A DNA stretch of 64,000 nt from Dehalococcoidia bacterium (lineage in GTDB: Bacteria; Chloroflexota; Dehalococcoidia; UBA6926). Numbering within the stretch: the stretch's first letter is position 1; each line of letters begins with the position of its first letter. The stretch covers positions 224,001-288,000 of the forward strand of contig CAXXET010000004.1 in assembly GCA_963666115.2 (NCBI GenBank), given 5' to 3'. Both the position numbers and the translations under genes were made by a program. Shown here in pieces: positions 4,074 through 30,578 of this stretch. The notes beneath the pieces were generated by a model. That model did no database searches, was not told the DNA's origin, and saw only the letters and a program-made list of their open reading frames with translations.

Positions 4074-4167
4074 GTCCCCCGCCCCGTTGGCGTGTAGGTT
4101 TGGTTCAGGGGCATGATGGCAGGCGCTCAACCAGGCCGTCTATCCGATTTCTCTGTGGAGGTCAGAC

Positions 4168-5706
4168 CTACCCCAAACTCTGGTAGTGGTACATCGGCTG
4201 CTCAGGCACACGCCAATCTGCGTAATACTCGCGCAAATACGGCTCCAGCCGCGCCGCGAGGCTTCGGCGGTTGGTAAGGTCATCAGGCGCGGGCGTGCCC
4301 AGTTCCTCGCGGACGGCCTCGATCACATCCTCTGCGGGAATCGTGAGGAGTTTGCGGTCCTGCAGAATGGTCTTGCCCTCGACGATCACGGTCTCAACGT
4401 CCGTGGCGCGGGCGCGTGAGACGAGGACATCCAGCACATCGAGGTTCTCGGCGACGTATGGCGTAGAAATCCGGTCCCAGTCGAGCAAAACCATGTCGGC
4501 GCGCTTGCCAACCTCAAGGGAGCCGATCAATTCCTCGCCGAACGTGGTCTCATACGCGCCGCCCAGCGTGGCCATGTGGAGAACCTGGTGGGACGTGAGG
4601 TGGGGCACGTCAAGGCCGGGGGGACGGTGCAGGCGCGTTGCGAGCGCCATTTCCTGGAAGTGGTCGTCATCATCGTTGATGGACGTGCTGTCCGTGCCGA
4701 GAGCGACGTGTACCCCCTGCCGGTGCATTTCAAGGACGGGCGCGATGCCGCTGCGGAGCCGCAGGTTGGAACTCGGGTTGTGGCTGATGCTGGTCCCGGT
4801 TTCGGCGAGAATCGCGATGTCCTCAGACGTCAGCCAGACACAGTGGGCAAGGGATGTCCTGGGGCCGAGGAATCCAAGCTCGTTGAACCGCTGCACGGGA
4901 GTTTGGCCGTGGAGCCGCTCAGCGTAGAGCCTCTGGTAGTAGCTTTCGACGCAGTGGGTATGGAGGCCGACATTCGCGGCGCGGGCCAGGTCTGCGATTT
5001 GCGCCAGCGTGTCCTCATCCGCCCAGTGGTACGCCTGTGGGCTGTAGAGCAGCCGCACCATGTTGGTGGAATCGGCGGGGTAGTCGCGGATCAGGTCGGC
5101 GGTCATGGCCAGGTAGTCTTCAGTGGACAGGATGGAGCTGTCGATGATGCCGCGGACGCCGCCGGCGAGGTCGTCCGGCATCTTGCTCAGGACATCCTCA
5201 TCGTTGCCGTACACCAGGTAGCACTGGTTCTTGAACGCGAGGGAAAACGCCGTCCGAACACCGGCCTGGGCAAAAGCGCGGAGGTTGGCCTGGGCCTCGT
5301 CCCAGACCATGCGGCGGGCCGTGGCGGACTGGTTGAACATGACGGTGGTGACGCCGGAGCGGACGAGGTTGAGGAGCGTGTAGAGCATCATGTTGAACGG
5401 CTCCACCGCGCGGCGCCCCCACGAGTGGTTGATCCACGTTTCAAGGCCGCCGTCCGGCTGGCCGAGCAGGAGTCCCGAGAGGCCCCGGCCATGGTGGTGG
5501 GCGTTGACCATGCCGGGCATGAGGAACTGGCGGCCGTTGCCGACGACGTCCGCGTCCGGGTACCGGGAACGGAGGCCGTCGTAGGCGCCCACGGCGACAA
5601 TCTCCCCATCCGTCTGCGCCACTGCGCCGTCTGTCAAAAGAACGCTGTCGCCGTCAAGATCGGCGCGGACGAGGACGTGCTTGCCGCGCGTGATGGTGGT
5701 TGTCAT
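4168..5706 (-). CDS. Amidohydrolase family protein (MtaD/AtzA/SsnA-like)
   Basis: PGMVNAHHH, HTHCVE, AHCVW, HNPSSN, LGTD and GKRAD motifs. Confidence 0.9.
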   Translation of the reverse strand: MTTTITRGKHVLVRADLDGDSVLLTDGAVAQTDGEIVAVGAYDGLRSRYPDADVVGNGRQFLMPGMVNAHHHGRGLSGLLLGQPDGGLETWINHSWGRRAVEPFNMMLYTLLNLVRSGVTTVMFNQSATARRMVWDEAQANLRAFAQAGVRTAFSLAFKNQCYLVYGNDEDVLSKMPDDLAGGVRGIIDSSILSTEDYLAMTADLIRDYPADSTNMVRLLYSPQAYHWADEDTLAQIADLARAANVGLHTHCVESYYQRLYAERLHGQTPVQRFNELGFLGPRTSLAHCVWLTSEDIAILAETGTSISHNPSSNLRLRSGIAPVLEMHRQGVHVALGTDSTSINDDDDHFQEMALATRLHRPPGLDVPHLTSHQVLHMATLGGAYETTFGEELIGSLEVGKRADMVLLDWDRISTPYVAENLDVLDVLVSRARATDVETVIVEGKTILQDRKLLTIPAEDVIEAVREELGTPAPDDLTNRRSLAARLEPYLREYYADWRVPEQPMYHYQSLG

Positions 5707-14000: not shown

Positions 14001-14373
14001 GCGGCGTGGTTTCGAGGTCGATTTCGTCTGAGCCGTCGGTTGGCACGAGGAATGTTGAGGATCGGACAGTCAATACTTCACGCTCGGCCAGGCCGTCAAA
14101 TGCAGACGTGACGCCGGAATGAACGCGGCGCGTTGCGCGTTCATAGACCTCGCGGTCGATGCCCGATGTCTGGAAATGGACTTCGAGATCGAGGGATTCT
14201 TCATCAGCGTTCGTTATGGCGTGCTGGAGGCCAAGGTCGCGGAGCGCCTGGGTGTAGATGACGATGCTGGCCATGGTGGCCGCCGCGACAGTGGCGCCGA
14301 TCAGCACGGGCAGCAAGAGGGGCGCGTACGTGCGCAGCCGGCGCAAGACGAGCGGCAAAAGCCTGATGCCCAC
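11014..14373 (-). CDS. Large FtsX-like ABC permease
   Basis: Two TM clusters with LLRSRGA and LLRTMG motifs separated by large extracytoplasmic domains; GTG start after GGAGG. Confidence 0.85.
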   Translation of the reverse strand: MGIRLLPLVLRRLRTYAPLLLPVLIGATVAAATMASIVIYTQALRDLGLQHAITNADEESLDLEVHFQTSGIDREVYERATRRVHSGVTSAFDGLAEREVLTVRSSTFLVPTDGSDEIDLETTPRATFHVLNSNQKLLALIESMAQPGAVETVDGVVTVEAVAMRQGAEYLGLEIGDTVPFVPFWEDKTSKINVRITGFAVPVDPDSHYWDAPALQRLVREPTLLSTLPVIVPAETLVDTVGSLFLKADGSFYSRYYTSPYDIRAADSERFARAIAGLNGGLGGSVDSYRQTTELDDVLNTYDTRIRFIEAPIAIMLFLVTAMVLYAIVFLAGLVTDRQRADAALLRSRGARTPQVLQIYAVQGLLVTAAASVAAPFIAAGLIASIGFLPVFSALGDGGPLRVSVSPLAFALAGVGGLLAFAVLLIPTLRLARRNLLEERRLIVRPNQVGFVQRYYLDVGLAVAGLIFLWQLGQQGSLVADALSGQQGADLFLLLIPTLFLLSAGLLLLRVLPLIGGLVARIAAPVSPTWLALGLWQVGRNPLSVTRLVLLLVLAAGLGAFAASFGGTLDRSYEERARYEAGADARIVGAAIANSQGPTQDMQALVESPDGVAAAARVFRSSAGFAAGSSTDRFEALAVDAPTLKNVTWWRDDFASNSLDETLDAVGGESIENWGIRLPDDARHMGLWVRSAEQPDPLSNLTATIEDGNGRFFTIFLGALESTDWSYREAALEPIRRRSWGRSVPTIQPAAPFTLVSLQIVQRSRSEGMSGGAFYVDEIMTRTVAEGSEPVSVRRFTGRDDLAVIQIGPLTRTDSLQLLGGAGRDGGPSLLFSWGATTAFVQRGFYAGPQVYQLPMLVSPGILRSSGLRVGDILDIGVGSARVPGTIVDVVDFFPTMNLTEGAGYVITEIQGLLRHQNLVGQGQETQANEVWYRLDEGLTGDERTEALRGIMESVGANNIIDRRDLIAASQADPLVAAGWGALLLVAYGAVLFLGGTCFVAHSILTVGERGRQFALLRTMGLNGPQIRAVVWFEHMLVVGIGIGAGFLLGQRTGALLMPFLDRTQDGVAVLPPYIIETSAVSIGIVYALMAAVFVAATAFVVRMYNTLALGQTLRIGED

Positions 14374-14374
14374 G

Positions 14375-17300
14375 CTACGCCTCCGCCCCGCGCAGAACCC
14401 ACGCGACGGGCTGGGACACGTATGCCCGCCACAGGGTGGCGGCCAGGCCAAGGCCGGTGGCGCATATCAGCCCAATCACCAGCCCCGCCACCTGCCAGTC
14501 CGGCGACAGGATCAGGCTCGGCACAGGTTCGGTTCCGGCGAGACCCTGGAATCGCGGCACGAGAATCCAACTGAGGTAGCCGCCAGCGGCAATTGCGCCC
14601 GCTCCGGCCGGCAGCGCTATCGACACGTATTCAACAGCGAAAGACACCAGCGCGGTGACACGGGCCACGCCAAGCGCGCGCAGTACGGCGTTCTCTCGCG
14701 CGCGGTCAGAGGCTGCGCCTGCGGCATGAGCCGCGACGCCAACGGCCAACGCGCCGATGCCCCCGATCAGGGCAATCAGTGTCATGCCGCGCCACCCGGC
14801 GGACGCGAGCGGGCTTTGCTGTGTCTCTTCCTGGATGGCGATGCGGTCCACGACTTCGCCGGAGTACCTTTCATCGTTCACGATTGCATCCAAGATAGCC
14901 GTTCTTTCGTCAGGCGCGGCGGGCAGAGAGAGAAAGACGCGGTTCGGCCAGAGCTTCTTGGTGACGCTGACTGCGTTGACGTGGTCAATGAGCGACTGGC
15001 CGTTGGCGACAAGGAAGCCTGCCGAGCCGGGCTCAATTGTGGGGAATGCCGCAAGCGAGCCGACGATGCGGATGGGAACGAGCCGGTCTGCCACGTGCAC
15101 CGCCGCCAGGCTTCCCACCTGCCAGCCGCGATTCAGCAGGAGATCGTCGGAGGCGAGCATTGGTATGGAGGATGCGCCGGGGGAGATGTAGATGCCGCGC
15201 ACGCCGTCGCGCGTATCACGACCCCATGCGAACTTGAGCGTGCCTTGCCGTTGGCCTGTGGATGAGCCGGCCTCGATAACGTCGCGGCGTTCTCCGGTCA
15301 GCAGGATCGGCAGCCAATCGGCGGCCTCGTCAAAGTCCTCCACCGGCGTCTGGATGCCTGCGGCATTGATGGCGACAAAGTCGTCAAGCTCAAAGCTGCC
15401 GGGCGTCCCGTTCGCGCCTTCGACAGGTTCGTAGATCATGATGCTGTTGAGGGTGTAGGGGCCGGGGGGAGGCGGTTGGCTGCCGCGGGAAAGCCGCGTT
15501 TCAAGGAACCGCCAGCCCGAAAAGTCCAGCGCGCCGAGGCTGTACGTGTCCGGTCTCCCGAGCCCATCAATGATCTGGAGCCACAGGAAACGGTTGGCCT
15601 GCGCGCGTTCGGGGTTCACCCAGATGCCCACGCGCTGCGTTCCGTCCGGGATGACGCGCGGAGGCGCGAGTGATTCGTTCGTGATCGCAAGCTCAATGAG
15701 AAGCTGCTCCATGGGCACGTCTGCGTAATCGTCCCGGAATTCCAGCAGTCCGCCGATCGTGGACGGATCGACACCAATAAGCGGGACCAGCGTGCCTACC
15801 TGGATGGAGCCGAGACCCGCCTGGCTGGAGTACGCGGCAGAGGCGTCGCGGACACCGTCAAGCGCCCGATACGTCGCCGTCACCTCGTCGAATGACTTGC
15901 CGTCGAACGCCCGGTGGCGGTCGATGCGAACGTCGACGCCCGCCTGGAATGTCGCCTGGTCTGCCGCAGCCCTGTCCAACGTGCCGCCAAATGTAGCGAC
16001 AAAGACTCCGAGGACGCCGAAGAGGAGCAAGAGGCCGGCGAGGGCCGCCGCAGGCGTGGAGGCGCGGTTGACGCGCTCCAACGCCACGTCAACCGGCAAA
16101 CGTCCGAGGGCGCGGGCAACGGCGGCGGCAATCCGTATCCCGAACGGCAGCAGGCGGTAGAGGAGCAGCAGCGCGGCGAGCGTCATGGCAATGGGCACGA
16201 TGAGCACTGTGCGGTCAAGCTGCGCCGTGCCGTCCGTTTGCGCGACGGCGACGCCCTCCTCGACGCCTCGAATCTCCACCTGCCAGAGGATTGCGGCGGC
16301 GATTACGAGGAGAACGACATCAAGGTGCAGGCGGCGGAACCAGGGAAGATTTGTTGGCCGCGACCGCTCGCTCTGGAGCGTTGAGACGGGGACGCGGGAA
16401 GCGCCAATCACCGGTATGGCCATGACGGCAATCGTGAGGGCGACGCCCGCGGCGAGCCACGGCAGAATGGGAACAATTGGGGCGGGCGTAAGACTCGCAC
16501 CGTCGAGGGCAGTTTTCCACGCTCCAAGCTCACCGAGTCCACGAATTGCCCCGTAGGAAATAAGGGGCGCGAGGGCTGCGGAAACTATCGTTGCGCCGAA
16601 AGCCCACGCCAAAATCAGCGCGACGGTTCTCCCTCCTCCCGCTCCCCTGCTCCGCAGCAGGCCGACAATTCCCTCCGTCGTCCGCCCAACAGTGAAAGCA
16701 ATCATCGTCAGCGCGTAGAGCAGGATTGCAGCGACGATAACGAGAACAATAACGAGGGGCATCCGGTTGCGGGCGACCTCATCCCGGAAATCGGGCAGGC
16801 TGTTCGCGAGCAACGATATGAAGAGGCTGCGCGGCGCCTCCGCGGTGATTCGCCCTTGCAGGCTCGCCACAGCCGCGTCGGCATCGGCAAGCCCCATGTC
16901 GAGCAGACGGTCAGGGTTGACGTAGAGGGTGTCCGAGATGCTGCCGAGTAGGGAAGGCGTCTCCGCGCCGATACGGTCAACAAGGGTCTGTTCAGGCAGG
17001 AACAGGCTGACCATCCACAGGCCGGCATCGTTTCGCTCCGCGTCTAGCCGCGCGTAAAACAGTCCGCCAACCTGGAACCAGTAGCGTTCTTCGGGATCGA
17101 CCGGTTCCACGATGCCCACGAGGACAGCGTCATGAGGCGTGGCGGGCGGGGGGAGGCGGGTGTTGAGGCGGAATTGCTGGTCGATTTGGAATCCGGTCTT
17201 CTCTGCGGCAGCCCTGCCAAGCATGACTTCAATGGGGCCGCTTGAGACGAACTGCGCCCGCCGGCCCTCGACAATCTGAACTTTCTCGTCAAAACCCGAG

Positions 17301-17671
17301 CGGGACGTCAGCGTCGCGATTACGTCCGGTTCGTCCGTTCCGGTCAACGCCGTGCGAATGGAATAAGCGGTTGAATAGACCCCGCGCCGATCCAGCGCGT
17401 CGCCAAGCGTGTCCTCGGCGGCGGCGAGTATGACCTGCCGGGCGGCGTTGTATTGCTCCGGCTCGAACGACGAGTAGCTTGTGGAGACGAGGACATCCAG
17501 GTTCCTGGAGTTGCGTTCAAGGTAATCCTGGAAAGCAAGGCGCTCCACGGTGCTGAGATAAAGAGGGCCGAGAACGGAAAGGGTAATCGTCAGCAGGATT
17601 CCAAGGGATGCCACGAGCGCCAGCGCCCTCTTGCCCCTCGTCTGTCTCCACGCCAGCCGCCATGGCGACAC
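14375..17671 (-). CDS. Large FtsX-like ABC permease (paralog)
   Basis: Same architecture (LLRSRGA, AGVDVRI, VLRALG). Confidence 0.85.
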   Translation of the reverse strand: MSPWRLAWRQTRGKRALALVASLGILLTITLSVLGPLYLSTVERLAFQDYLERNSRNLDVLVSTSYSSFEPEQYNAARQVILAAAEDTLGDALDRRGVYSTAYSIRTALTGTDEPDVIATLTSRSGFDEKVQIVEGRRAQFVSSGPIEVMLGRAAAEKTGFQIDQQFRLNTRLPPPATPHDAVLVGIVEPVDPEERYWFQVGGLFYARLDAERNDAGLWMVSLFLPEQTLVDRIGAETPSLLGSISDTLYVNPDRLLDMGLADADAAVASLQGRITAEAPRSLFISLLANSLPDFRDEVARNRMPLVIVLVIVAAILLYALTMIAFTVGRTTEGIVGLLRSRGAGGGRTVALILAWAFGATIVSAALAPLISYGAIRGLGELGAWKTALDGASLTPAPIVPILPWLAAGVALTIAVMAIPVIGASRVPVSTLQSERSRPTNLPWFRRLHLDVVLLVIAAAILWQVEIRGVEEGVAVAQTDGTAQLDRTVLIVPIAMTLAALLLLYRLLPFGIRIAAAVARALGRLPVDVALERVNRASTPAAALAGLLLLFGVLGVFVATFGGTLDRAAADQATFQAGVDVRIDRHRAFDGKSFDEVTATYRALDGVRDASAAYSSQAGLGSIQVGTLVPLIGVDPSTIGGLLEFRDDYADVPMEQLLIELAITNESLAPPRVIPDGTQRVGIWVNPERAQANRFLWLQIIDGLGRPDTYSLGALDFSGWRFLETRLSRGSQPPPPGPYTLNSIMIYEPVEGANGTPGSFELDDFVAINAAGIQTPVEDFDEAADWLPILLTGERRDVIEAGSSTGQRQGTLKFAWGRDTRDGVRGIYISPGASSIPMLASDDLLLNRGWQVGSLAAVHVADRLVPIRIVGSLAAFPTIEPGSAGFLVANGQSLIDHVNAVSVTKKLWPNRVFLSLPAAPDERTAILDAIVNDERYSGEVVDRIAIQEETQQSPLASAGWRGMTLIALIGGIGALAVGVAAHAAGAASDRARENAVLRALGVARVTALVSFAVEYVSIALPAGAGAIAAGGYLSWILVPRFQGLAGTEPVPSLILSPDWQVAGLVIGLICATGLGLAATLWRAYVSQPVAWVLRGAEA

Positions 17672-17737: not shown

Positions 17738-18505
17738 ATGGGGCCATTCATCGATTCACACACGCACATCGACCAGCACGATCCGGACGAATTGCCCGGT
17801 ATCGTGGCGCGCGCCCAGGACGCCGGCGTTGAAGCGATCATCGCGGCGGGCGTGACAATCGAGTCGTCCGAGCGGTGTGTGCAGTTGGCGCGGGAGTATC
17901 CGGACGTCGTGTGGGCGGGCGTCGGCGTCCACCCGATGGACATCTCCGGCCCGCTTTCGGACGGGGACGTCGACCGCCTGCGTGAACTGGCGCGGATGCC
18001 GGGCGTCGTCTGCATCAGCGAGACCGGGCTTGACTGGGAGCCGGGGAGGCCGGACAGGGCGGCGCAGGAACAGGCTTTCCGTGCACAACTGCGGCTTGCG
18101 GTTGAGCTGGATCTGCCCGTGATTTTTCACAACCGTGAGGCGGGCATGGAGCCGCTGGGGGTCATCCGAGAGGAGGTAGGCGATAAGGTTCCTGCCGTGG
18201 CGCACTATTTCCAGGGGCCGCTCGACTACGCTCTCGCCTGCCTCGACCAGGGCGTCTATCTGTCGTTGGCCAAGCCGCTGCTGAGGCTGCCGGACTTGCA
18301 GGACATCGTTGCGAAACATGCGCCTTTGGAGTCCATCGTCCTCGAAACGGACTCCTACCCGCAGCCTTGGAAGAAGCATCGGAGGAACTGGACAGAGCCG
18401 CGCGACGTGCCGACCGTTGCGGCAAAGGTGGCGGAACTCAAGGGCATCACCGTTCAGGAAGTCGCCGAGTCAACGACGGCCAATATGCGCCGCATCATTT
18501 CCTAA
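17738..18505 (+). CDS. tatD: TatD family metal-dependent hydrolase/DNase
   Basis: IDSHTH, GVHP, SETGLD, PVIFHNRE, ETDSYP. Confidence 0.88.
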   Translation: MGPFIDSHTHIDQHDPDELPGIVARAQDAGVEAIIAAGVTIESSERCVQLAREYPDVVWAGVGVHPMDISGPLSDGDVDRLRELARMPGVVCISETGLDWEPGRPDRAAQEQAFRAQLRLAVELDLPVIFHNREAGMEPLGVIREEVGDKVPAVAHYFQGPLDYALACLDQGVYLSLAKPLLRLPDLQDIVAKHAPLESIVLETDSYPQPWKKHRRNWTEPRDVPTVAAKVAELKGITVQEVAESTTANMRRIIS

Positions 18506-19800
18506 ACCCCCACTGCCGCGTCCCGCTCGCCGCTCTCCGATTCCGAACCCAGCAGCTGGTCCGGCATGGCAGTGCTGCGAAGCGACCGGAATATGAGGAG
18601 GATGACGATGACCAAAACGAGGGTGATTGCGCCCATGATCGCCGTGGCGGTCGGCGCCCCCCACTCCTCCGCCAGCCTGCCAATCATCGTGATCCCCACA
18701 GGCGAGGCTCCCCACGTCGTCGTGCGGATTGCGGACAGCCGCCCTCGCATGGAATCGCTGATGAGGAGTTGCGCCCGCGCGGTGGTGGCCACGAGGCAGG
18801 ACTGGAAGCCGAGACCGGCGAGATAGGCAAAGAGCAGGCTCAACGTCAGTATCTCGGAGAAGCTGAAAGCAATGAGGGCGAGCGAGAAGCCGATCCCGCC
18901 GAACACAATTAGGTTGCGGATGGCGCGGGGGCTGCTAAACGTTGCGAGGACAATGGACCCGGTCATGGAGCCTGCCCCCGCCGCCGCGCCGAGATCACCC
19001 GCCGCCGTCGCGCCCTGGTTGAGGACGTCACGCGCGAAGACGACAAGCTGGGTCTGGTAGGGCGAACCAAAGATGATCGCAGCGCCCGCAACCGTCATCA
19101 GGCCGAGGATGACCTTGTGGCGCCAAATGAAGAGGGCGCCTTCAACCGTGTCCTTCCAGACGATCGCCAGTGTCTTGTTTCCCTCGCGCGAGCCCTGGCG
19201 GATGTCGACGGGCAGGAGGAAGAAGATGGACACGATTGAGAGGCCGGCGGCAGCGCCGAATGCCGCCGCCCCGCCGAATTCGTCAAAGATGCGCCCGCCA
19301 ATGAAGCTGCCGACGAGCATCCCGCCGCTGAACATGATGGAGGACAGCGCGATGCCGTTGGCCATGTTGTCGCGGCTCACGAGGTTCGGCACCACGGCCA
19401 TACGCGACGGGAGAGCAACGGCGAATGCGATGCCAGCGATTACGCTCAGCACGAAGATGCTCCATAGCTCTATTTGGTCGATGGCAAGCAGGACGACGAA
19501 TCCCAGCAAAGCGAGGATCGTTATTATCTCCGTGACAATGAGTATCCACTTGCGGCTGAACCGGTCTGCCAGGACGCCGCCGAAGAGGGAAATCAATGAC
19601 GGCAGCTCGCCCGCAGTCCAGGCGGCGGCGACAAGTTCCGGGGAGTCTGTCATTTCAAGCACGACCCACCCCCGGAAGAGAAGGAGCATCATGTGGGACA
19701 TGATCGCGGCGACGGACGACAGCCAGAACAGGGTATAGTCGCCTGACCGGAAGGATCGCAGCGGGCCGCGGCCAAAGAGGGCTTGCAACAAGAAGACCAT
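18502..19800 (-). CDS. MFS transporter
   Basis: GGVLADRFSRK motif A; about 12 TM segments. Confidence 0.88.
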   Translation of the reverse strand: MVFLLQALFGRGPLRSFRSGDYTLFWLSSVAAIMSHMMLLLFRGWVVLEMTDSPELVAAAWTAGELPSLISLFGGVLADRFSRKWILIVTEIITILALLGFVVLLAIDQIELWSIFVLSVIAGIAFAVALPSRMAVVPNLVSRDNMANGIALSSIMFSGGMLVGSFIGGRIFDEFGGAAAFGAAAGLSIVSIFFLLPVDIRQGSREGNKTLAIVWKDTVEGALFIWRHKVILGLMTVAGAAIIFGSPYQTQLVVFARDVLNQGATAAGDLGAAAGAGSMTGSIVLATFSSPRAIRNLIVFGGIGFSLALIAFSFSEILTLSLLFAYLAGLGFQSCLVATTARAQLLISDSMRGRLSAIRTTTWGASPVGITMIGRLAEEWGAPTATAIMGAITLVLVIVILLIFRSLRSTAMPDQLLGSESESGERDAAVGV

Positions 19801-19860: not shown

Positions 19861-20658
19861 ATGGCAATGACAGGTTCATCGGATGTTGTCCTGTACGAGA
19901 AGCGGGATCGAATCGCGTACGTGACGTTGAATCGACCGGAGGCGATGAACGCGCTGAACTCAGCGGTGGGGGCGCGGCTCTATGAAATCTGGAGCGATTT
20001 CCGCGACGATGACGACCTGCTCGTCGCGATTATCACGGGAGAGGGCGGACGGGCGTTTTCCGCCGGCGCAGACCTGAAAGAGGTGAGCGGCAGGCAGGCT
20101 GAGGGGAAATCTCAATTCGAGGAGCGGGGGCCCGGCTCTCGATTCATTCCCGATCTCAATGTCTGGAAGCCGATCATCGCGGCCATTGACGGCTATTGCG
20201 TGGCAGGCGGCCTGGAACTGGCGATGCAATGCGATATCCGCCTCGCAACGGAGAAGTCGCAGTTCGGCCTGCCGGAGCCGCGCTGGAGCATCATGCCCGC
20301 CTACGGCCTGCACCACATGATGCGGATGGTTCCAACAGGCGACGCGCTGCGGATGATGCTCACGGGCAGCCGCATCACGTCCGATAACGCGCTGCGGATC
20401 GGCCTCATCCAGGAGGTGCATCCGGACCGCGACGCGCTGATGGAGGCGGCCCAGGGAATCGCGGAAGAGGTCAAGCTCTGCGCGCCGATGGCCGTGCAGG
20501 CGATCAAGCAGATCGCGTACGTTGGCCGCAGTATGGCGCCGGAGTACTCATACCGGTTCGCGCAGGAGTTGAGCGCGAAGGTGCTGGGCAGCGAGGACGC
20601 GGCGGTTGGGCCTGCGGCGTTCGCGGAGCGGCGCACGCCGGAGTGGAAGGGGCGGTAG
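19861..20658 (+). CDS. Enoyl-CoA hydratase/isomerase family protein
   Basis: LNRPEAMNAL, FSAGADL, GYCVAGGLELAMQCDIR, FGLPE. Confidence 0.92.
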   Translation: MAMTGSSDVVLYEKRDRIAYVTLNRPEAMNALNSAVGARLYEIWSDFRDDDDLLVAIITGEGGRAFSAGADLKEVSGRQAEGKSQFEERGPGSRFIPDLNVWKPIIAAIDGYCVAGGLELAMQCDIRLATEKSQFGLPEPRWSIMPAYGLHHMMRMVPTGDALRMMLTGSRITSDNALRIGLIQEVHPDRDALMEAAQGIAEEVKLCAPMAVQAIKQIAYVGRSMAPEYSYRFAQELSAKVLGSEDAAVGPAAFAERRTPEWKGR

Positions 20659-20660
20659 CC

Positions 20661-21971
20661 CTAACCGGTTCGGCGCGAGGGGTGGGATTCCGGCAGGAGG
20701 ATGCCGATTAGTCCTACTGTGACTGAGACGGGCAGGACGATGAAGAGGGCTGTTGCGAGCGAGCCTGTCCCCTCTTGCAGCACGCCCGCAAGAATCGGGC
20801 CGATGGTGGAGCCGAGAGGGGTGATCGTCCGGATAAGCCCAACCGCCACCGCAACTTCGCGCGGGCGGAACTGCATGTCGAACGGCACTGTCATGATCAT
20901 CGGCACCACCGAGGACGTCATCATCCCTTGCAAGACCAGGAACGGCAACAGCGCCAGCGTCCATGAATCGCCCGACAGGAAACTATCGGGCAGCCACGCT
21001 ATCAGGGGGTTGTCGGGGCCCATTGACAGGATGGTCAGGTAGAGGACGGGCATGATGAATCCCTGGATGAAGATGAACGGCTTTCGCCGCCGCACCCAGT
21101 TGGATAACGGCCCGACGCTGAGCGAGCCAATCGTGCCGCCGATTGGGAACGCGGAGAACAGCAGGCCCACCGTGATCAGCGACAGCCCATGCTCCTCCTG
21201 CGCAAACGTCGGGAAGAACGTCACGAACGTCGCCCACGCCATCGCGCCGCCGAACTGTGTTGAGGCAATGACGAAGAGAATTGGATGCCGCTTGAGCACG
21301 CCCGCCGGGCCGCCCGGCGTCCCGTCGGCCCGCAGCGCGGCGGGCGGCATCTCCGTTGCCGAAGATTGGTACGGACGCTCGCGCCCAACGATGAACCACA
21401 CGATTGCGACGCCGGCATAGACGACAGCAAGAAGCAGGTGGATACCCCGCCACCCGCCAACGTGGGGCATGAGTATCGGCACAAGCCCGATGGCGGCCAA
21501 TTGGCCGATTCCGAAACTCGCGACCGTAATGGAATTGAGCGTGGCGATGCGCGGTCCGCTGAACCACTGCTGGATCAACATCACCTCCGCCTGCGTCCTG
21601 GACACAAGCGCGTACATGAACATCAGCCTCGCCGCCAGCAGTATCCAGTAGTTCGGCGCGATGCCCTGCAAGACCGCGGTAATCGTCATGCCGATAAGCG
21701 CCAGCAAGGTCACGAGGCGCGGGCTGAACCGCGACATCCAGATCGCGGACGGCAGGGAGAGGGTGGTCAGCGCGACGAAGAATGCAGACCCCAGGTAGCC
21801 CTCCTCGACGGGCGTGATGTTGAACTCTTCGCGGATCTCCGGCAGGGTCAGCCCGATCAGGAAGATCATCACCGTGGACGTGCCGTCCACCGCCCACAGG
21901 GCGGACATGACGACCCACCCGGTGCGACGGGTGTAAGCCGGAGACTGTGCGGCGGCCCCGAGGCCGCTCAT
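20661..21971 (-). CDS. MFS transporter
   Basis: About 12 TM segments with MFS-like spacing; last gene of the thiolase-DUF35 operon. Confidence 0.85.
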   Translation of the reverse strand: MSGLGAAAQSPAYTRRTGWVVMSALWAVDGTSTVMIFLIGLTLPEIREEFNITPVEEGYLGSAFFVALTTLSLPSAIWMSRFSPRLVTLLALIGMTITAVLQGIAPNYWILLAARLMFMYALVSRTQAEVMLIQQWFSGPRIATLNSITVASFGIGQLAAIGLVPILMPHVGGWRGIHLLLAVVYAGVAIVWFIVGRERPYQSSATEMPPAALRADGTPGGPAGVLKRHPILFVIASTQFGGAMAWATFVTFFPTFAQEEHGLSLITVGLLFSAFPIGGTIGSLSVGPLSNWVRRRKPFIFIQGFIMPVLYLTILSMGPDNPLIAWLPDSFLSGDSWTLALLPFLVLQGMMTSSVVPMIMTVPFDMQFRPREVAVAVGLIRTITPLGSTIGPILAGVLQEGTGSLATALFIVLPVSVTVGLIGILLPESHPSRRTG

Positions 21972-21978
21972 CGATGAA

Positions 21979-22413
21979 TCACGCAGGCTTGAACTTCACC
22001 AGCGTCCACTCGGGCGTGATGTCGTCATACACCGCGACGACGGGCATGTTCACCTCAACGTCGTGCGGCTCAATGCCGATCACGTTGGAGATCATCCGCG
22101 CCCCCTCGTCCAATTGGATGATCGCGTACACATACGGCACGTCCTCGTTGAACCGCGGATCATTCGGCTGGTAGACGATGGTAAAGGCGTGGACGCGCCC
22201 GCGCCCAGAAACCGGCGCCCATTCAAGGTCGTCGGACAGGCAGGCGGGGCAAAGCTCGCGCGGGTAGAAGAAGAACCTGTCGCACATGCGGCATCGTTGG
22301 ATCACCAGCTCGTGCCGCTTCGTCGCCTCCCAGAACGGCTTGGTGAAGTCCCCCAGCGTTGTGCCGTGCAACCCACCCGGAATCGGCAGCGGCTTTGTAT
22401 ACTCAGTCGTCAT
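21979..22413 (-). CDS. Zn-ribbon/OB-fold protein (DUF35 family), thiolase partner
   Basis: PFWEA..RHELVIQRCRMC...YPRELCPAC, SGRG, PYV.AIIQLDEG.RMISN. Confidence 0.92.
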   Translation of the reverse strand: MTTEYTKPLPIPGGLHGTTLGDFTKPFWEATKRHELVIQRCRMCDRFFFYPRELCPACLSDDLEWAPVSGRGRVHAFTIVYQPNDPRFNEDVPYVYAIIQLDEGARMISNVIGIEPHDVEVNMPVVAVYDDITPEWTLVKFKPA

Positions 22414-22422
22414 CGTTTCATC

Positions 22423-23580
22423 CTAGAGCGCGGCCTCGGACCCGAGGACCAGGGTGGCCATACTGGACACCGTGCCGCCTCAACCGTTCACCAAACACAG
22501 GTCGTTCCGCTCAACCTGCCGAACGCCGCCCCGCCCCATGATCTGCCGCGTCGCCTCGATCACGTGGCGGAACCCGCCCGCGTCGCCGGGCTGCCCGCAT
22601 GAGAGCTGGCCGCCGTCCGTGTTGATCGGAAACTCGCCCTTGTACGTCGTATCCGTTGACGCGAAGAACGGGCCGATGTCGCCCTTGGGCACAAGCCCCG
22701 CGTCCTCAAGGCACACGGCATGAAGGATGGTGTAGCAATCGTAGAACTGCGCGAACTCGATGTCGGACGGCCCGTACCCCGCCATGCCGAGCGCGATGGG
22801 CGCGGAGCGCGTCACCACCGAGCGCGTTAGTCGTTCCCGCTGCCAACCCGACAGCGGGTCGCACGCGATGCCCGCGCCCAGGATGTACACAGGCTTGTTC
22901 TTGAGCGATTTCGCTCTCTCGGCGGACGTGAGAATGATGGCCGACCCGCCCGCGCACGGCATCACGGACTCCAGCAGCCGGATCGGATAGTTGATATACC
23001 GCGAATTGAGCACGTCCTCGATGGTCAGCGGCTGCCCGCGAAACACCGCGTTCTCATTCTCCAGCGCGTTGAAGCGTTGGTTCACGGAGATATTGGCCAA
23101 CTGCTCCTGCGTGGTGCCGTATTCGGCCATGTGGCGGGAGTACATGAGGCCGTAGCCGGTGTTCGCCGCGACGGCGGGGCCGTAAGGGTCTTCAAATTCG
23201 GTTCGCAGCCCCGGCGTGGCAGGACTGCCCCACGGGCTGCCCGCCTGCCGCGCCTCCGACAGCGTGACGAGGACGGTGGTGGCGAGCCCCGAGTAGATGG
23301 CCATCGCCGCGACGGACGTCGCCGTTGCCCCGCTCGCGCCCATCGTGCTGACGCCGGTTACGAAGTTGGGGTTGAGGCCCATGTATTCGCCGATGGGAGC
23401 GGGATAGAAGCTGCCGCCCTCAACGACGAGCCCGTCGATTTCCTCCTTGCGGATGCCCGCGTCGACAATCGCGTCGCGCGTCGCCTCCGCCATCAGCCCC
23501 AGGGCGGTGCGCCCCTCATAGGTGCGGCGCGTCGGCATCTCCGCGAAGCCCACAATCGCCGCTGCGCCTCGCATCGTCAT
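22423..23580 (-). CDS. SCP2/Ltp2-type thiolase-fold protein, 385 aa with an in-frame TGA at 22480-22482 (candidate selenocysteine)
   Basis: Family motifs YDCYT and INTDGGQLS. The frame continues after TGA as GGTVSSMATLVLGSEAAL-TAG, the expected final beta-strand, and ends 9 nt before the DUF35 ATG. Confidence 0.85.
22453..22471 (-). promoter_or_regulatory. Candidate bacterial SECIS element of the thiolase gene
   Basis: GGUG-U-CCA-GUA-UGG-C-CACC hairpin starting 9 nt after UGA; loop G at +17. Confidence 0.55.
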
Positions 23581-25409: not shown

Positions 25410-26012
25410 CTAGTCGATGACGCCGATGCGCGGGCGCAGGCCGCGCTCCCGGCGTGTCAGCCGGAATCCGGCGCGGGACTCCGTTCGGTCGCGCTGTTTC
25501 GCGGCATCCGCCCACCCCTCATGGGCGAGGAGGCGTTCCTTGACGGCCAGCCCGCCGCCGAATCCGGTAAGGGCGCCGTCCGCGCCCACGACGCGATGTC
25601 AAGGGACGACGACGCCGAGCGGGTTGGCGCCAACCGCCTGCCCGATGGCGCGCGCCGCCTTTGGCCTGCCGATGGCGTGCGCCACGTCACCGTATGTCCA
25701 CACCTTGCCGGCGGGAATCTCGGTGAGGGTCTGCCAAACGGCGCGCTGGAAGTCCGTTCCGCCGTCCATGTCCAGCGGGCCCGAGAGATCCATCTCCTCC
25801 CCGTTCGTGTAGCGCGCCAGCGCGTCCGCCCAGTGGTTGAGAACCTCATTGGCAGGATCGTCATGGAGGAGGCCGGGGATGTCCGCGCGCTCCTGCTCGA
25901 TGAGCGCCCGATCATCATGCGGCCCCAGGACGGCTTTCAGACCCTTTGGCGAGGCGATAAGGCCGAGGAATCCGAGCGGCGTCGAAATAACCCTGTGACC
26001 GTTAGCGTGCAT
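25410..26012 (-). CDS. ogt: Methylated-DNA--protein-cysteine methyltransferase (Ogt/MGMT), 200 aa with an in-frame TGA at 25599-25601 at the catalytic position (candidate selenocysteine)
   Basis: [15 protein letters not shown]...TYG...AARAIG.A.GANP..VVVP-[TGA][28 protein letters not shown]...TAG; homology continues in frame across the TGA. Confidence 0.9.
25571..25587 (-). promoter_or_regulatory. Candidate bacterial SECIS element of ogt
   Basis: After UGA and an 11-nt spacer: perfect hairpin GGGCGC-GGACG-GCGCCC with the loop starting at G (+18). Confidence 0.7.
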
Positions 26013-28341
26013 CTGCGGTTCTCCTTCTCACCCTGGCGCGTCCCCTCGGCACGAATCTCAGCAGCGTCAACGCCAGCAGGCCGAATACGATCGCGCGCCA
26101 TGAGAACGGCCTGTCCGGCGCGGCGTCCTTATCAGGACCATACAGGACATGGTCGTACCATTGCACCACGCCGTACAGCGCCCACGTTGCGCGAGGCCAT
26201 GCGGCGGACAGGCGGCTGATGTACTCCGCCGGCGTCTCATCGGGCCTGGTCTTGACCCCCGCCAGCCGTCCAAGCCGGACGGTTCGCGCGTATGCCCGCC
26301 CGGCGGTGCGCGGCCGCGCCAATGCCTGCCACCAGAAGAACACGAGGATTGAGAGGCCAACGACGCCAAGAATTGCGCCCGCTCCGTACCAGACCCTCGG
26401 ATCGATCCCCACGTCCGGCAAAATCCCGGCGCCGGCATCGTCAAACTCCTGGTCGGCGGCGTCGAGGAAGCTGTCCTCCTGCAGCAGGTCTGCTTCCTCA
26501 AATGCGAACGCGCCGAGATCGCCCGCAAGCTCAAGGTCAACGTCGGGAACGAGCGCGGAGAACGTCCCCGTTGGCCCGCCGGGCGCGTCCGGCTCAACGT
26601 TCGGCGTCGGCTCAAACGGAATCCACCCGTACCCGGGGAAATAGGCTTCCGCCCACGAATGGAGATCGGTCTCGCGAACGACGAACGCGCCCAACTCGTC
26701 GTTGTACTCGCCGGGCAGATAGCCGACTGCCAGCCGGGCGGGGACCCCCACCGCGCGCAGCATCACCGTCATGGCGGAACCGAAGTACTCGCTGTAGCCT
26801 GCCTTTTCGCGGAAGAGGAAGTGTTCAAGGCCGTCAACGCCCGGGGGCGGGGCGTTGATGTTTTGGGAGTATTCGAGCTTGCGCAAGTATTCACGGATGG
26901 TGACGGCCTTGAGGTACGGCGTATCGGCGTCTTCGGCCCAGGTTTCCGCCAACTTGCGGACGCTCGGCGGCAAGTCGTCCGGCAACTGCAGATACCTCTC
27001 TGCCACCCAGTTTTTGTATTGGGGAGTGAGCGTGGTGATGTCCTCGACCGTTACCTGCGGGACGTAGGTTTGGACGGTATACCGCTGGTTGGGCTGCAAC
27101 ACGTCCGGGCTTTCCAGCTTGACCAGCCGATGGCCCTCATCGACGTCAATGTTGGTGAATTGGGCCTCGACGGGCAGGGTTGTGCGGAGAGGGGTGGCGG
27201 CGGTAAAGACGGTGGTCGCGGGGGCCTTGAGTTCAAAGGTCACGTTCCGAACACACTCCGGGCAGTTCGTGTAGCTGCTCCCCGCAATGTCCTCCAGTCC
27301 TCGCCGCTCATCGACGACCATCGGGCTGTTGCTCCAACCCCAGCCCGCGTAGCGGTCATAGGTCCGCGCGCGCCAGTACAGCCGCTCATCGCTCTCGACA
27401 TGCATCAAAATATCGGAGGGGAGGTTGATGTTGCCCCTGAACGGCAGCTCATCCGTGAAGCCGGACAGCCCCATCGACCGGCGCGCGGGCAGCGAGGCGA
27501 AGATGCGCGTGAACGTGCCTTCGGCGTTGCCGATGGGAGACCGCACTTCCGCCCAAAATGAGCGGACGACGCGCGGGCCTGAGCCAAGCGACGGCGTCAC
27601 TGTCACGACGAGGAACACGATCAGCGCAAACCAGATGCCGGCGTGCATGACGTGGGCAGGCAGCCAGGACCCCTGCGCGGCTGTCTGCTCATCCCATTTG
27701 CGGCTGCGTTCAAGATGGACGAGGCGGACGATGAGCAGGGCGGAGGCGAGCAGGAACGCCATGAAGAACGGGAGGGAGCTTGGCGGCAGGTAGGTCAGGT
27801 TGGTGACGATGGCGAACCCTGCCGGCAGCGTGGCCCAGATGTTGCGCAGCCGCAGCGTCAGGTAGACAGTCACGTAGGCAACGGCCCATGCGCCCAGCAG
27901 GAGCAGGAAGACGAACGTCAGCCTGTCCGTGCTTGCGCCGCCCTCCAACAACGCCTGCGCCCACAGCGTCATGCGGTAGACCGCGCTCAGCGCCCTGCCC
28001 TCCAGACTAGCCCCGGCCACGACCGTCAGCGTTTGCGCGAACGCCTGCGCCAGCGCGATGAACAGGGCAACCGCGTGCTGGACGACATGACTGCGGCGAT
28101 GCTTCGCGTTGATCAGCCCCGCCGCGCCCCCGATGAGCACCGCAAACGCCACCCCCGGAATCACGGGAACCCAGTGGGCATCCTCAACGCTCCAAACAAC
28201 GATCGCGGCGACCATAAACGCCAAGCCAACCGTCAGCCATCCCGTGTCCGGGTACGCCGCCGCCCGATGCCACGAGCGCGTCAGCCACGGCGGCACGTCG
28301 ACGGGCTGGGCGGGCGGCATCCGCTGCTCTGCCGTGCTCAC
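26002..28341 (-). CDS. Membrane transglutaminase-like protein (TgpA/DUF3488 plus DUF4129)
   Basis: N-terminal TMs, YWRARTYDRY, GYSEYFGSAMTVMLRAVGVPARLAVGY, HSWAEAYFPGYGWIPFEPTP. Confidence 0.88.
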   Translation of the reverse strand: MSTAEQRMPPAQPVDVPPWLTRSWHRAAAYPDTGWLTVGLAFMVAAIVVWSVEDAHWVPVIPGVAFAVLIGGAAGLINAKHRRSHVVQHAVALFIALAQAFAQTLTVVAGASLEGRALSAVYRMTLWAQALLEGGASTDRLTFVFLLLLGAWAVAYVTVYLTLRLRNIWATLPAGFAIVTNLTYLPPSSLPFFMAFLLASALLIVRLVHLERSRKWDEQTAAQGSWLPAHVMHAGIWFALIVFLVVTVTPSLGSGPRVVRSFWAEVRSPIGNAEGTFTRIFASLPARRSMGLSGFTDELPFRGNINLPSDILMHVESDERLYWRARTYDRYAGWGWSNSPMVVDERRGLEDIAGSSYTNCPECVRNVTFELKAPATTVFTAATPLRTTLPVEAQFTNIDVDEGHRLVKLESPDVLQPNQRYTVQTYVPQVTVEDITTLTPQYKNWVAERYLQLPDDLPPSVRKLAETWAEDADTPYLKAVTIREYLRKLEYSQNINAPPPGVDGLEHFLFREKAGYSEYFGSAMTVMLRAVGVPARLAVGYLPGEYNDELGAFVVRETDLHSWAEAYFPGYGWIPFEPTPNVEPDAPGGPTGTFSALVPDVDLELAGDLGAFAFEEADLLQEDSFLDAADQEFDDAGAGILPDVGIDPRVWYGAGAILGVVGLSILVFFWWQALARPRTAGRAYARTVRLGRLAGVKTRPDETPAEYISRLSAAWPRATWALYGVVQWYDHVLYGPDKDAAPDRPFSWRAIVFGLLALTLLRFVPRGRARVRRRTADAR

Positions 28342-29594
28342 GCTCCCCACCTCTCGGGCCGCGTGAAGCTGCGGCGGTTGCCCGGCTGCATGGCAATCGG
28401 GCCCAGCGCGTTGAAGCTCAGGGCGCGCCCGATGTCATCGCCGAGCCGCACGATATACGCCGCGACGCCCATCGAATACAGGCTCGCAAGTTCGGCGGAG
28501 TGGTCGCCGGACGCGCCGAAACTCGTCGGCTCCAGCAGGATGACCGCCCCGGGCGAGTTCCGCTCTTGCAGGATGGACGCGGCGGCGATGGCGTCTTGCA
28601 CAGACGGGGTGATGGCGATGACGCCGGTTCGACGGCTGAATTGCGCCTCGTGGATGCCGAGCAGTTCACCCAGGCTGACCCTGCCCTCCGCCCGGCACAG
28701 CGCTAACGCTTCCAGGATGCGCCACAGGTGCTTGTCGCCGGTTCCGTTGGGGATGGTGTATTCGGAATCGCCGATGGCGGAGAAGCCCACGCCGTTGTCG
28801 AACTCCAGCAGGTAGCGCGCGATGGAGGCGGCAACCGTGACGCTAACCTCTTCCGTGCCGCTCAGGCCCTCGCCCACCTGCACAGCCGCGTTGAGGTCGA
28901 GGAGTATCGAGAGATCGGACTGCACCTCCGTCTCGAACTCCTTGACCATGAGGCGGTTGAGCTTCGCGCTGCTCTTCCAATGGATGCGGTTGAGGCTGTC
29001 GCCAACGGTGTAGCGTCGAACGGATACGACGTTGGGCGTGAACTGGGACGTTGCGCGGTAGTCCGGCGCGTCGCCCGTCTCCTCCGCGCTGGAGATCACG
29101 AAGTCGTCAAGCGGGAACGGGGCCGGATAGACGACCAGTTCGCGCCGCTCGCCGATGACTCGCGTCGTCTCGAAAAGGCCGAACGGGTCGGACGCCGTGA
29201 CGCGCAGCGGCCCCCAGTGAAAGCGGCCGCGCTTGTCCGCGCGCGTTCCCAGTTTCGTCCAGTTGCGCGAGCCGCGCGTGGGCACGCCCATGACCTCGGA
29301 CGCAAGCGCAGGAACGTCGCCGATGTCCTCGATATGCAGCCAGGGGCGCGGCAGGAGGGAGGTATTTTCCAGCCACACGGACTCCTCCACGCGCTCCCCC
29401 ACCTGCGCCAGCGACGGCTGATCGTCCGCGCCCGCGCTGATTCCGCGCAGGCTCAGCTTCGTCCACAGCCACGCCAGGATGAACACGGCGATGACGGCGC
29501 TGAGCAGATAGGACATGACGTAGAATCCCGACCCAAGGGTCAGGAAGAGCGCCATCAGGATCAGCGCGCCCAGATAGACGCGGCGACTCCGCAC
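28338..29594 (-). CDS. DUF58 domain protein
   Basis: RG...GP....SDPFGLF, VRRY.GD.L.RIHWKSSAK, LMVKEFE. Confidence 0.9.
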   Translation of the reverse strand: MRSRRVYLGALILMALFLTLGSGFYVMSYLLSAVIAVFILAWLWTKLSLRGISAGADDQPSLAQVGERVEESVWLENTSLLPRPWLHIEDIGDVPALASEVMGVPTRGSRNWTKLGTRADKRGRFHWGPLRVTASDPFGLFETTRVIGERRELVVYPAPFPLDDFVISSAEETGDAPDYRATSQFTPNVVSVRRYTVGDSLNRIHWKSSAKLNRLMVKEFETEVQSDLSILLDLNAAVQVGEGLSGTEEVSVTVAASIARYLLEFDNGVGFSAIGDSEYTIPNGTGDKHLWRILEALALCRAEGRVSLGELLGIHEAQFSRRTGVIAITPSVQDAIAAASILQERNSPGAVILLEPTSFGASGDHSAELASLYSMGVAAYIVRLGDDIGRALSFNALGPIAMQPGNRRSFTRPERWGA

Positions 29595-29603
29595 GCTGCC
29601 CCC

Positions 29604-30578
29604 TCAGTTCCGCAGCCACCCTCGCGGCACGGCTCCCGGCACAGGCACGCGCTCCAGCACCTGCGCCAGCACGTCGTCGGTCGTGACGCCCTGCATCCGC
29701 GCGTTCGGGTTGAGGATGATGCGATGCCCCAGGATCGGGCCGACCAGCCGCTTGATGTCGTCCGGGAGCACGTAATCACGGCCGTCCATCACCGCGCGGG
29801 CCTGCCCCCCGCGAAAGAGTGTCAGCGCCCCCCGCGGCGATGCACCCACGTAGACGGAGCCGTGCTCGCGCGTGCCGTCCACGATGTCCACGATGTACCG
29901 CTTGATCAAATCGTCCACGTACACCTGCCGCACCGCCTGTTGGAGGTCCAGCGCCTCCTCCGTCGACGTGACCGGCTCGATGGAGTCTATCGGGTGTTCG
30001 AGGCGCGTTCGATCCATGATTTCCATTTCGGAATCGATCGTCGGATAACCCAGCGAGAGGCGCAGGAAAAAGCGGTCGCGCTGCGCTTCCGGCAGCAGGA
30101 ACGTCCCCTCATGCTCCAGCGGGTTCTGCGTGGCGATCACGTGGAACGGCTGCGGCAGCGGGTGCGTCACGCCATCCACCGTCACCTGCCCCTCCTCCAT
30201 CGCCTCCAGCAGCGCGGATTGGGTCTTCGGCGTGCCGCGGTTGATCTCATCGGCAAGGAGGACGTGCGCGAGAACGGGGCCTGCGCGGAACTCAAACTCG
30301 CCGGTGCGCTGGTTGTAGAGGTTGACGCCAATGACGTCCGTGGGCAGCAGATCGGGGGTGAACTGGACGCGCTTGAATGACGCGCCGAGGGAGACGGCAA
30401 CGCTGCGGGCCAGCATCGTCTTGCCGACGCCAGGCACGTCCTCGATCAGGAAGTGGCCGCCGCCCAACACGGCCGTCAGCGCAAGCTCCGCCGCCGCGCG
30501 CTTGCCCACGATGACCCGTTCGACGTTTTCCAACGTCTTGTCCACAACCTCGCGCGCGCGGTCAACCGTCGCTGCCAC
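29604..30578 (-). CDS. moxR: MoxR family AAA+ ATPase
   Basis: EDVPGVGKT, RVQFTPDLLPTD, DEINR, ATQNPLE.EGT..LPEAQ.DRF, SPR. Confidence 0.93.
   Translation of the reverse strand: MAATVDRAREVVDKTLENVERVIVGKRAAAELALTAVLGGGHFLIEDVPGVGKTMLARSVAVSLGASFKRVQFTPDLLPTDVIGVNLYNQRTGEFEFRAGPVLAHVLLADEINRGTPKTQSALLEAMEEGQVTVDGVTHPLPQPFHVIATQNPLEHEGTFLLPEAQRDRFFLRLSLGYPTIDSEMEIMDRTRLEHPIDSIEPVTSTEEALDLQQAVRQVYVDDLIKRYIVDIVDGTREHGSVYVGASPRGALTLFRGGQARAVMDGRDYVLPDDIKRLVGPILGHRIILNPNARMQGVTTDDVLAQVLERVPVPGAVPRGWLRN

Follow-up and report, generated by a model that had tools for sequence, protein, structure and literature searches.

The window, a 64,000-nucleotide stretch of DNA from a Dehalococcoidia bacterium, carries on its minus strand a predicted selenoprotein gene for a thiolase-fold protein that resembles the aldolase Sal. 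The open reading frame begins with an ATG at 23580 and reaches an in-frame TGA at 22482..22480, directly after the residues NDLCLVNG. Past this codon the frame continues as GGTVSSMATLVLGSEAAL and ends with a TAG at 22425..22423. Translated throughout, the gene spans 22423..23580 and has 385 codons plus the TAG stop, with the TGA as codon 367. The conserved column of the TGA (22480..22482), the decoding machinery of the genome, and the strands of a structural model point to a selenocysteine (Sec) at this position, Sec367, which would be the first residue past the penultimate beta-strand. The 18 codons that follow (22426..22479) are predicted from codon-position variation and the model to form the oxyanion-hole loop and the last beta-strand. 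They contain a candidate Sec insertion sequence (SECIS), the hairpin GGUG-U-CCA-[GUA]-UGG-C-CACC, at 22453..22471. The next gene on the same strand (21979..22413) encodes a DUF35 partner protein with a Cys4 zinc ribbon and an OB fold (Pfam zf-ChsH2 and OB_ChsH2_C); its ATG lies at 22413, leaving a spacer of 9 nt after the TAG. The original prediction for this locus had read the frame past the TGA to the TAG and given the same 9-nt gap, and these coordinates were confirmed.

Is the TGA a feature of the gene or of a single assembly? The survey covered 61 genomes, comprising the window's own and 60 relatives from its class, with 28 of the 61 in the window's own family and 33 in other families; its counts are among the matches listed, and 101 additional matches lie outside the listing. 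An orthologue with 89–100% identity is found in 22 of 22 genomes of the same genus, each with exactly one in-frame TGA. At least one listed match contains an in-frame TGA in all 28 genomes of the family and in 3 of the 33 from other families (G044, G051, and G058). In read-through translations the TGA occupies one column, VNG-U-GG, in 30 of 30 orthologous and paralogous loci. When further paralogues are included (those in the genome were picked by phmmer, a k-mer filter being far too loose), 45 TGA sites are found at this column, 43 of them unique in DNA, at protein identities down to 49%. The codon is also unchanged in contigs of two public runs: X1, which may be the source sample, and X4, from a sponge metagenome. 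A contig from X2, a marine metagenome, is 97% identical, and 37 of its 38 differences are listed, none on the TGA; the contig from X3 does not reach the TGA. Since the codon is conserved across genomes and present in independent contigs, a sequencing error and a strain-specific nonsense mutation are both ruled out.

The 54 nt past the TGA are, by their pattern of variation, evolving as coding sequence: in 25 orthologue sequences the variable columns number 7 at the first, 2 at the second, and 15 at the third codon position. Of the 43 unique Sec-type sequences, 40 have an extension of exactly 18 codons, closed by TAG or TAA in 38 and by TGA in two. A 19-row alignment served to build an AlphaFold2 model (mean predicted local distance difference test score, pLDDT, 79.7; predicted template modelling score 0.85), which places the last two strands at residues 361–366 and 373–380, with a pLDDT of 81–94 in the tail. 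According to this model, a product ending at Gly366 would be without one core strand. Together these comparisons strongly support the view that UGA367 is recoded rather than terminating, and that the recoding is conserved across a large family. On the other side, no public RNA run was found that contains the stretch, and recoding rests on DNA comparison.

Genes for Sec decoding are present in the same 2.07-Mb genome. The tRNA-Sec scores 68 bits against a cut-off of 47 and is classed by ARAGORN as SeC with the anticodon tca, while selA (539 bits), selB (330 bits), and selD (387 bits) are all above their family cut-offs. The selD gene has an in-frame TGA of its own, in the context HCAG-U-AAKLGP (L018, G000:C6:419476-423399), and on this sequence evidence selD is itself a selenoprotein. 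It resembles the thiolase-like gene in that the UGA is followed by a hairpin, here of 6 bp, with a loop that starts 16 nt after the UGA against nt 17 in the thiolase-like gene; both would depend on selA, selB, and selC. Of the 31 surveyed genomes with TGA-type genes, 29 gave a selA match; the other two are 69% and 71% complete. Conversely, seven genomes without selA are at least 90% complete, and no TGA-type match is listed for any of them. These genomes are related and not independent samples, and the co-occurrence is a matter of consistency, not a statistical test. A change of genetic code, with TGA read as Gly or Trp, was considered and rejected because TGA is an ordinary stop elsewhere in this genome, where it closes 653 of the 1489 open frames of at least 300 codons and also the DUF35 gene.

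In bacteria, the criteria used by bSECISearch describe a SECIS element as a hairpin just 3' of the UGA, with a loop about 16–37 nt away and a G early in that loop. The hairpin of the window gene (22471..22453) is part of the minimum free energy fold, and its loop G is the 17th nucleotide after the UGA, exactly where it had been predicted. In every clade a hairpin is centred 18–22 nt after the UGA, with differing sequences and registers. A single consensus structure for all clades was tried and rejected, and two subsets were tested separately, because the pairing register differs between clades. The counts cover 25 of the 31 rows of alignment A1; the rows in other registers (L048, L067b, L063a, L063b, L072, and L070) were left out. 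Among 12 paralogue sequences, 89.3% of cells are paired, compared with at most 66.7% in slid controls, there are two compensatory pairs, and 1 of 500 shuffles reaches the observed value. The 13 orthologue sequences give 87.9% against at most 49.5%, again with two compensatory pairs, and no shuffle out of 500 reaches this level. One of the orthologue compensatory pairs changes from G-C to A-U through synonymous changes in a Val and an Ala codon. When the sequences are recoded synonymously, the mean z is -0.96 for 43 Sec-type sequences versus -0.07 for 14 sense-codon homologues.

Several results weigh against reading this hairpin as a SECIS. The energy of the window hairpin is unremarkable (z = +0.80), 164 of 200 shuffles folding at least as well, and against synonymous recodings, too, it shows no gain in stability (z = +0.38). 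The pairing register varies between clades, with i+j equal to 48, 50, 52, or 54 by eye on A1. No Rfam family matches 22380..22520 at E values up to 10; there are three chance-level matches only, none to a SECIS family. The hairpin is therefore best described as a probable, not a proven, SECIS, with support that is comparative and not energetic. Of the checks proposed in the original prediction, conservation of the hairpin and covariation have some support, from a hairpin in all clades and two compensatory pairs in each subset; the folding energy adds none.

Which enzyme does the gene encode? Pfam assigns it to Thiolase_C_1 only (E 7e-43; 146.2 bits against a cut-off of 28). The NCBIfam thiolase, lipid-transfer, and BbsB models all score under their cut-offs, the best reaching 284.5 bits against 421 (PRK06158 and others) and BbsB 105 against 750. 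The best match in the PDB is 9myr_A, with an E value of 1.3e-78, a Foldseek template modelling (TM) score of 0.88, and 40% identity. Further solved relatives are, in order, 4U4E, the Ltp2-ChsH2(DUF35) complex 6OK1, and archaeal thiolases, and the Foldseek matches are all of the thiolase fold. The entry 9MYR is CtSal-ShyDUF35, the bile-acid side-chain retro-aldolase of Comamonas testosteroni together with the DUF35 domain of the hydratase Shy (PMC12329534). By sequence and model, the window protein belongs to the Sal/Ltp2 aldolase-like branch of the thiolase fold.

The active-site residues agree with this placement. The original prediction had noted STMGASG and GQP where a thiolase has its nucleophile Cys and its GHP motif, and both lie opposite these motifs in 7yvy, a Pyrococcus thiolase. 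The segment TMGASGA aligns with AACASGG, which puts Gly81 (23338..23340), invariant in alignment A4, at the position of the nucleophile Cys, and Gln330 replaces the GHP histidine. The nucleophile Cys (CxS) and the GHP His of true Claisen thiolases are thus both missing from the aligned protein. Residues of CtSal were mapped through the 9myr alignment, in which the chain index equals the residue number plus 24, an offset verified on Gln347 and Gln352. In CtSal, a YDCY motif provides both the base, Tyr302, and the acid, Cys304, and the thiolate is stabilised by Gln347 and Gln352; Gly occupies the position of the thiolase nucleophile, and the oxyanion hole consists of the Gly391 backbone and Gln161 (PMC12329534). 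In the window protein, Y280-D-C282-Y283 (22732..22743) corresponds to Y302-D-C304-Y, Q325 and Q330 of GGQLSCGQP (22591..22608; also aligned to 7yvy) to Gln347 and Gln352, G81 to the Gly at the nucleophile site, and G369 to Gly391. Sec367 corresponds to Thr389, two residues before G369. One residue of the mapping departs from CtSal: the oxyanion-hole Gln161 is Ala here, and an exact copy of the Sal mechanism is for this reason not possible.

A DUF35 homologue was found by tblastn directly downstream of 41 of the 43 unique Sec-type genes; a zinc-ribbon regular expression had been tried for this purpose and was abandoned as too strict (11 of 35). In the window the partner is a stand-alone protein of 144 residues. 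By analogy with CtSal and Ltp2, which bind their DUF35 partners, the thiolase-like protein very probably binds this one. The pairing of a Sec-containing thiolase-fold enzyme with DUF35, the core of the original prediction, is therefore supported by the TGA column in 30 of 30 loci, by the Sec machinery, and by the neighbouring DUF35 gene. In the same-genus orthologues (L022-L042), the DUF35 match starts about 40–50 nt further downstream than in the window gene, where the spacer is 9 nt (22414-22422).

The position of Sec367 can be related to that of the second catalytic Cys of thiolases. In the Zoogloea ramigera thiolase, the CxG fingerprint consists of residues 378–380 and its Cys is the catalytic base (PMC3406046). 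Classical thiolases (CxS, NEAF, GHP, and CxG motifs) have the same fold as the window protein, and by strand register Sec367-G-G falls at their CxG. The preferred placement, which rests on this register in the model and on the equivalence with Gly391 of CtSal, accordingly puts Sec367 at the classical acid/base Cys, in keeping with the original prediction, which noted that this C-terminal loop carries the second catalytic Cys (CxGGG) in classical thiolases. A thiolase-like protein, MsTLP1, has N-G-G at the CxG fingerprint in a structure-based alignment (PMC3406046), the same N-G-G that is found in Asn-type relatives of the Sec family. In SCP2-type thiolases the CxG Cys is missing, and the HDCF Cys serves in its place (PMC7682436). 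In the window protein, YDCY occupies this NEAF/HDCF fingerprint (PMC3406046, PMC7682436). Whereas thiolases have their catalytic Cys at either CxG or HDCF, the Sec protein would have a chalcogen at both positions, because YDCY occupies the one fingerprint and Sec367, in the preferred register, the other.

Alignments of the protein to the genome's own classical thiolase argue for a different register. Both hhalign (probability 9.7%) and MAFFT put Cys362, and not U367, opposite the CxG Cys. However, many Sec-type paralogues have Gly or Ala in place of Cys362, and this register would leave the last strand unaligned. For these two reasons, the structure-based register is preferred.

What takes the place of Sec in other members of the family? 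At the 14 sense-codon loci, column 367 is Asn in six (all AAC), Thr in seven, and Val in one. The best 120 database clusters include 96 that stop at column 367 and 7 that stop at the FYD column (103 together); those of full length have Asn in 12 cases, Cys in one (P0089), and Ser in one (P0109), and three clusters are partial or odd. A single Cys at this column is atypical for selenoproteins and, on these sequences, leaves the role of the Sec less certain. The alternation of TGA with Cys that the original prediction had named as support is accordingly present only in part: the TGA is conserved, and Cys alternates with Sec at a second column, 282, but column 367 has mostly Asn or Thr in place of Sec.

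Column 282 is Cys in the window gene. It is TGA (FYD-U-YT) in the sister-genus orthologues L044-L046 and in five paralogue rows, and one two-TGA paralogue lies in the same genome (C6:336594-337748). The alignments show a clear Cys/Sec alternation at this column, the equivalent of an experimentally proven catalytic Cys. Sec at column 282 is found only in proteins that also have Sec367, eight sequences in all. The codons TGA, TGC, AGC, AAC, and ACC are all observed as states of column 367 and are joined by single-base steps, from which a mutational path among them may be inferred. A maximum-likelihood tree of 53 rows, built quickly with a single Thr-type row as the root and without the shortened database proteins, unites the Sec-type sequences in one well-supported group (97 in the Shimodaira–Hasegawa-like approximate likelihood ratio test, SH-aLRT), with Asn-type groups nested inside and 10 state changes. 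The most deeply nested Asn-type group is also without Cys282 (FYDAYT), while many other Asn367 homologues keep Cys282.

Two loci in the window's own genome depart from the common arrangement. At L071 (G000:C6:335594-340510), two thiolase-like/DUF35 pairs stand in tandem, the genes lying at about 1001-2158, 2195-2730, 2766-3920, and 3930-4394 of the locus. In the first of the two thiolase-like genes, TGA occurs in frame twice (FYD-U-YT and VNG-U-GG); the second belongs to the most deeply nested Asn-type group, with Asn at 367 and Ala at 282, and has lost both chalcogens. The product of this second gene could be an inactive or scaffolding subunit. L072 (G000:C6:411157-412311, minus strand) is a paralogue with 49% identity in which the TGA stands in the context VNT-U-RGY and is followed by a strong hairpin of 7 bp. 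It differs from 41 of the 43 Sec-type sites in that no DUF35 homologue was found within 1400 nt downstream.

How the UGA is decoded can now be weighed as a whole. In the proposed scheme, SelB with Sec-tRNA(Sec) would bind the hairpin 11–30 nt downstream, inside the open reading frame, and insert Sec at UGA367. Could the TGA instead be a true stop, yielding a product of 366 residues, with the downstream frame a remnant, a pseudogene tail, or a sequencing error? Gene callers annotate it in this way, and the many database clusters that end at the column follow suit. The possibility is nevertheless extremely slight, given the constant length and third-position-biased variation of the tail, the oxyanion-hole glycine and last core beta-strand that it supplies, and the occurrence of the TGA in independent assemblies. 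It is also very improbable that selenium plays no part and that Trp, Cys, or Arg is inserted by a near-cognate tRNA, or the codon recoded through a local signal other than a SECIS. Sec incorporation is predicted here from sequence, and a thermodynamically ordinary hairpin would fit such a mechanism; against it stand the complete Sec machinery, the tracking of selA by TGA-type genes, and a second TGA that alternates with Cys at a catalytic Cys proven in the Sal enzyme (PMC12329534). Moreover, the TGA has been kept over about 50% protein divergence, when a sense codon would be simpler. Among the outcomes named beforehand as speaking against the original prediction, most were looked for and none of these was found; the independent contigs from X1 and X4 carry the TGA, and tRNA-Sec, selA, selB, and selD are all there. 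Taken jointly, Sec decoding of this gene and the Sal-like identity of its product can be held with good confidence on the comparisons made. The specific catalytic role of the Sec commands clearly less.

The enzyme and the DUF35 protein would form a heterocomplex, in which a hydratase-made beta-hydroxyacyl-coenzyme A (CoA) or a related CoA ester would be cleaved, in a reaction of the retro-aldol type, to a carbonyl compound and a short acyl-CoA. Tyr280 would act as the base, and the Cys282/Sec367 pair as a low-pKa proton relay to the enolate carbon. Of the two activities in the original prediction, C-C cleavage and acyl transfer, the first is favoured by the Sal-type residues, and for the second the Claisen Cys and His are missing; by analogy, Sal-type retro-aldol cleavage is more likely than thiolysis. 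A bolder reading, less probable than not, is that a scaffold which had lost its chalcogen at the ancestral CxG position (the ancestral residue being Asn or Thr) had one re-installed there as Sec. The resulting Tyr-Cys-Sec arrangement, or Tyr-Sec-Sec in some paralogues, would serve the non-redox C-C cleavage of CoA esters, and the enzyme would be the first selenium-dependent thiolase-fold aldolase or lyase. A redox partnership of the two residues, with a selenenylsulfide between Sec367 and Cys282 or, in the two-Sec paralogues, a diselenide that would act as a switch or in a redox-coupled reaction, is clearly less likely than the proton relay. The two columns do co-vary, Sec282 occurring only with Sec367 in the eight sequences and the nested Asn-type paralogues having lost both (N367 and A282), and most known selenoproteins are redox enzymes (PMC9312934). 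In addition, both positions supply the same catalytic Cys function in different thiolase classes (PMC7682436), so by analogy they should be near in space. On the other hand, the many Asn367 homologues that keep Cys282 indicate that it works without a chalcogen partner, and a Pfam search of the protein gave neither a redox domain nor a cofactor site. Selenolates are excellent both as nucleophiles and as leaving groups, and the canonical nucleophile position is taken by Gly81. Both facts lend something to the idea that Sec367 is a covalent nucleophile, forming an acyl-selenoester in a true thiolase or acyltransferase. This is improbable, however: Sec367 would sit at the acid/base (CxG) site, across the substrate from the site of the nucleophile, Gln replaces the GHP His that Claisen chemistry requires, and CtSal and TcLtp2 are aldolases without a covalent intermediate (PMC12329534).

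Comparison with the characterised aldolases shows how far the preferred retro-aldol scheme can lean on them. CtSal and the window protein share the Gly at the nucleophile position, the catalytic Tyr and Cys of YDCY, both Gln residues, and a DUF35 partner. They differ in Thr389 of CtSal against Sec367 and in Gln161 against Ala, and DUF35 is the C-terminal part of Shy in the one system but a stand-alone protein in the other. The substrate of CtSal is the CoA ester of a 22-hydroxy bile acid, whereas nothing here points to steroids. TcLtp2-ChsH2DUF35 (6OK1; E 1.7e-33, TM 0.86) likewise has the thiolase fold, no nucleophile Cys, and a DUF35 partner. In contrast to the window protein, with YDCY and with Gln330 in place of Tyr344, Ltp2 has YDHF and the residues Tyr294 and Tyr344 (PMC12329534).

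Compared with the selenoproteins catalogued so far, which are mostly thiol-type oxidoreductases with Cys homologues (PMC9312934), the present family has a C-C lyase/transferase fold, and the usual replacement of its Sec is Asn. No thiolase-type selenoprotein was found in full-text literature searches, judged by listings and abstracts. The word thiolase is absent from the main texts of prokaryotic selenoprotein reviews of 2022 and 2026, the deep-Sep paper, and the Global Ocean Sampling (GOS) selenoproteome paper (PMC13188914, PMC12013277, PMC2398784, PMC9312934), whose supplementary tables could list such a family. In PMC5109826, selenocysteine and thiolase occur in unrelated contexts. Database entries for the relatives, which come from Chloroflexota, SAR202, or Dehalococcoidia, are named 'thiolase family protein' or 'acetyl-CoA acetyltransferase' and are shortened at the TGA. 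Marine Chloroflexota commonly carry the family, and in SAR202/Dehalococcoidia from the sea and from sponges it is present in multiple copies. It appears to be a large and systematically mis-annotated selenoprotein family undescribed in print. An older connection between selenium and thiolases is of another kind: Hartmanis and Stadtman are said to have found in 1982 that the thiolase of Clostridium kluyveri contains selenium, as nonspecific selenomethionine and not as encoded Sec.

Gene callers cut the protein in 103 of the best 120 clusters, which removes the oxyanion-hole loop and a core strand. Known selenoproteins have been found through Sec/Cys pairs, and the standard search would tend to miss this family because most relatives have Asn at the Sec column. 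If the proposal is correct, Sec would be used outside redox chemistry, and hundreds of Chloroflexota gene models would need correction. The family would also provide natural variants with U, C, S, or N, through which one could ask what selenium adds to acid/base catalysis. Finally, selenium supply would gate part of the breakdown of organic acids in abundant ocean and sponge bacteria, by way of CoA-ester catabolism.

The genes beyond DUF35 are compatible with CoA-ester catabolism but do not identify the substrate. A major facilitator superfamily (MFS) transporter gene is next on the same strand (20661..21971; Pfam MFS_1, E 1.9e-40), and its position suggests that it may form one operon with the Sec and DUF35 genes. 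It is followed by a convergent plus-strand gene for an enoyl-CoA hydratase of the crotonase type (19861..20658; Pfam ECH_1, E 2.4e-50), to judge from its sequence a possible supplier of the beta-hydroxyacyl-CoA substrate. The profile search of the window proteins identified a second MFS transporter gene at 18502..19800. The selenoprotein family table of PMC9312934 includes another CoA-ester enzyme with Sec; the crotonase gene of the window is without an in-frame TGA.

Further away in the window, two adjoining and very large minus-strand open reading frames of 1145 and 1098 residues occupy 11014-17671, their sole Pfam match being a C-terminal FtsX-like permease domain. On the other side of the Sec gene, at 26002-30578 and also on the minus strand, a MoxR-type AAA ATPase, a DUF58 protein, and a transglutaminase-like TgpA protein are encoded in a row, a common trio that is unrelated to the Sec gene.

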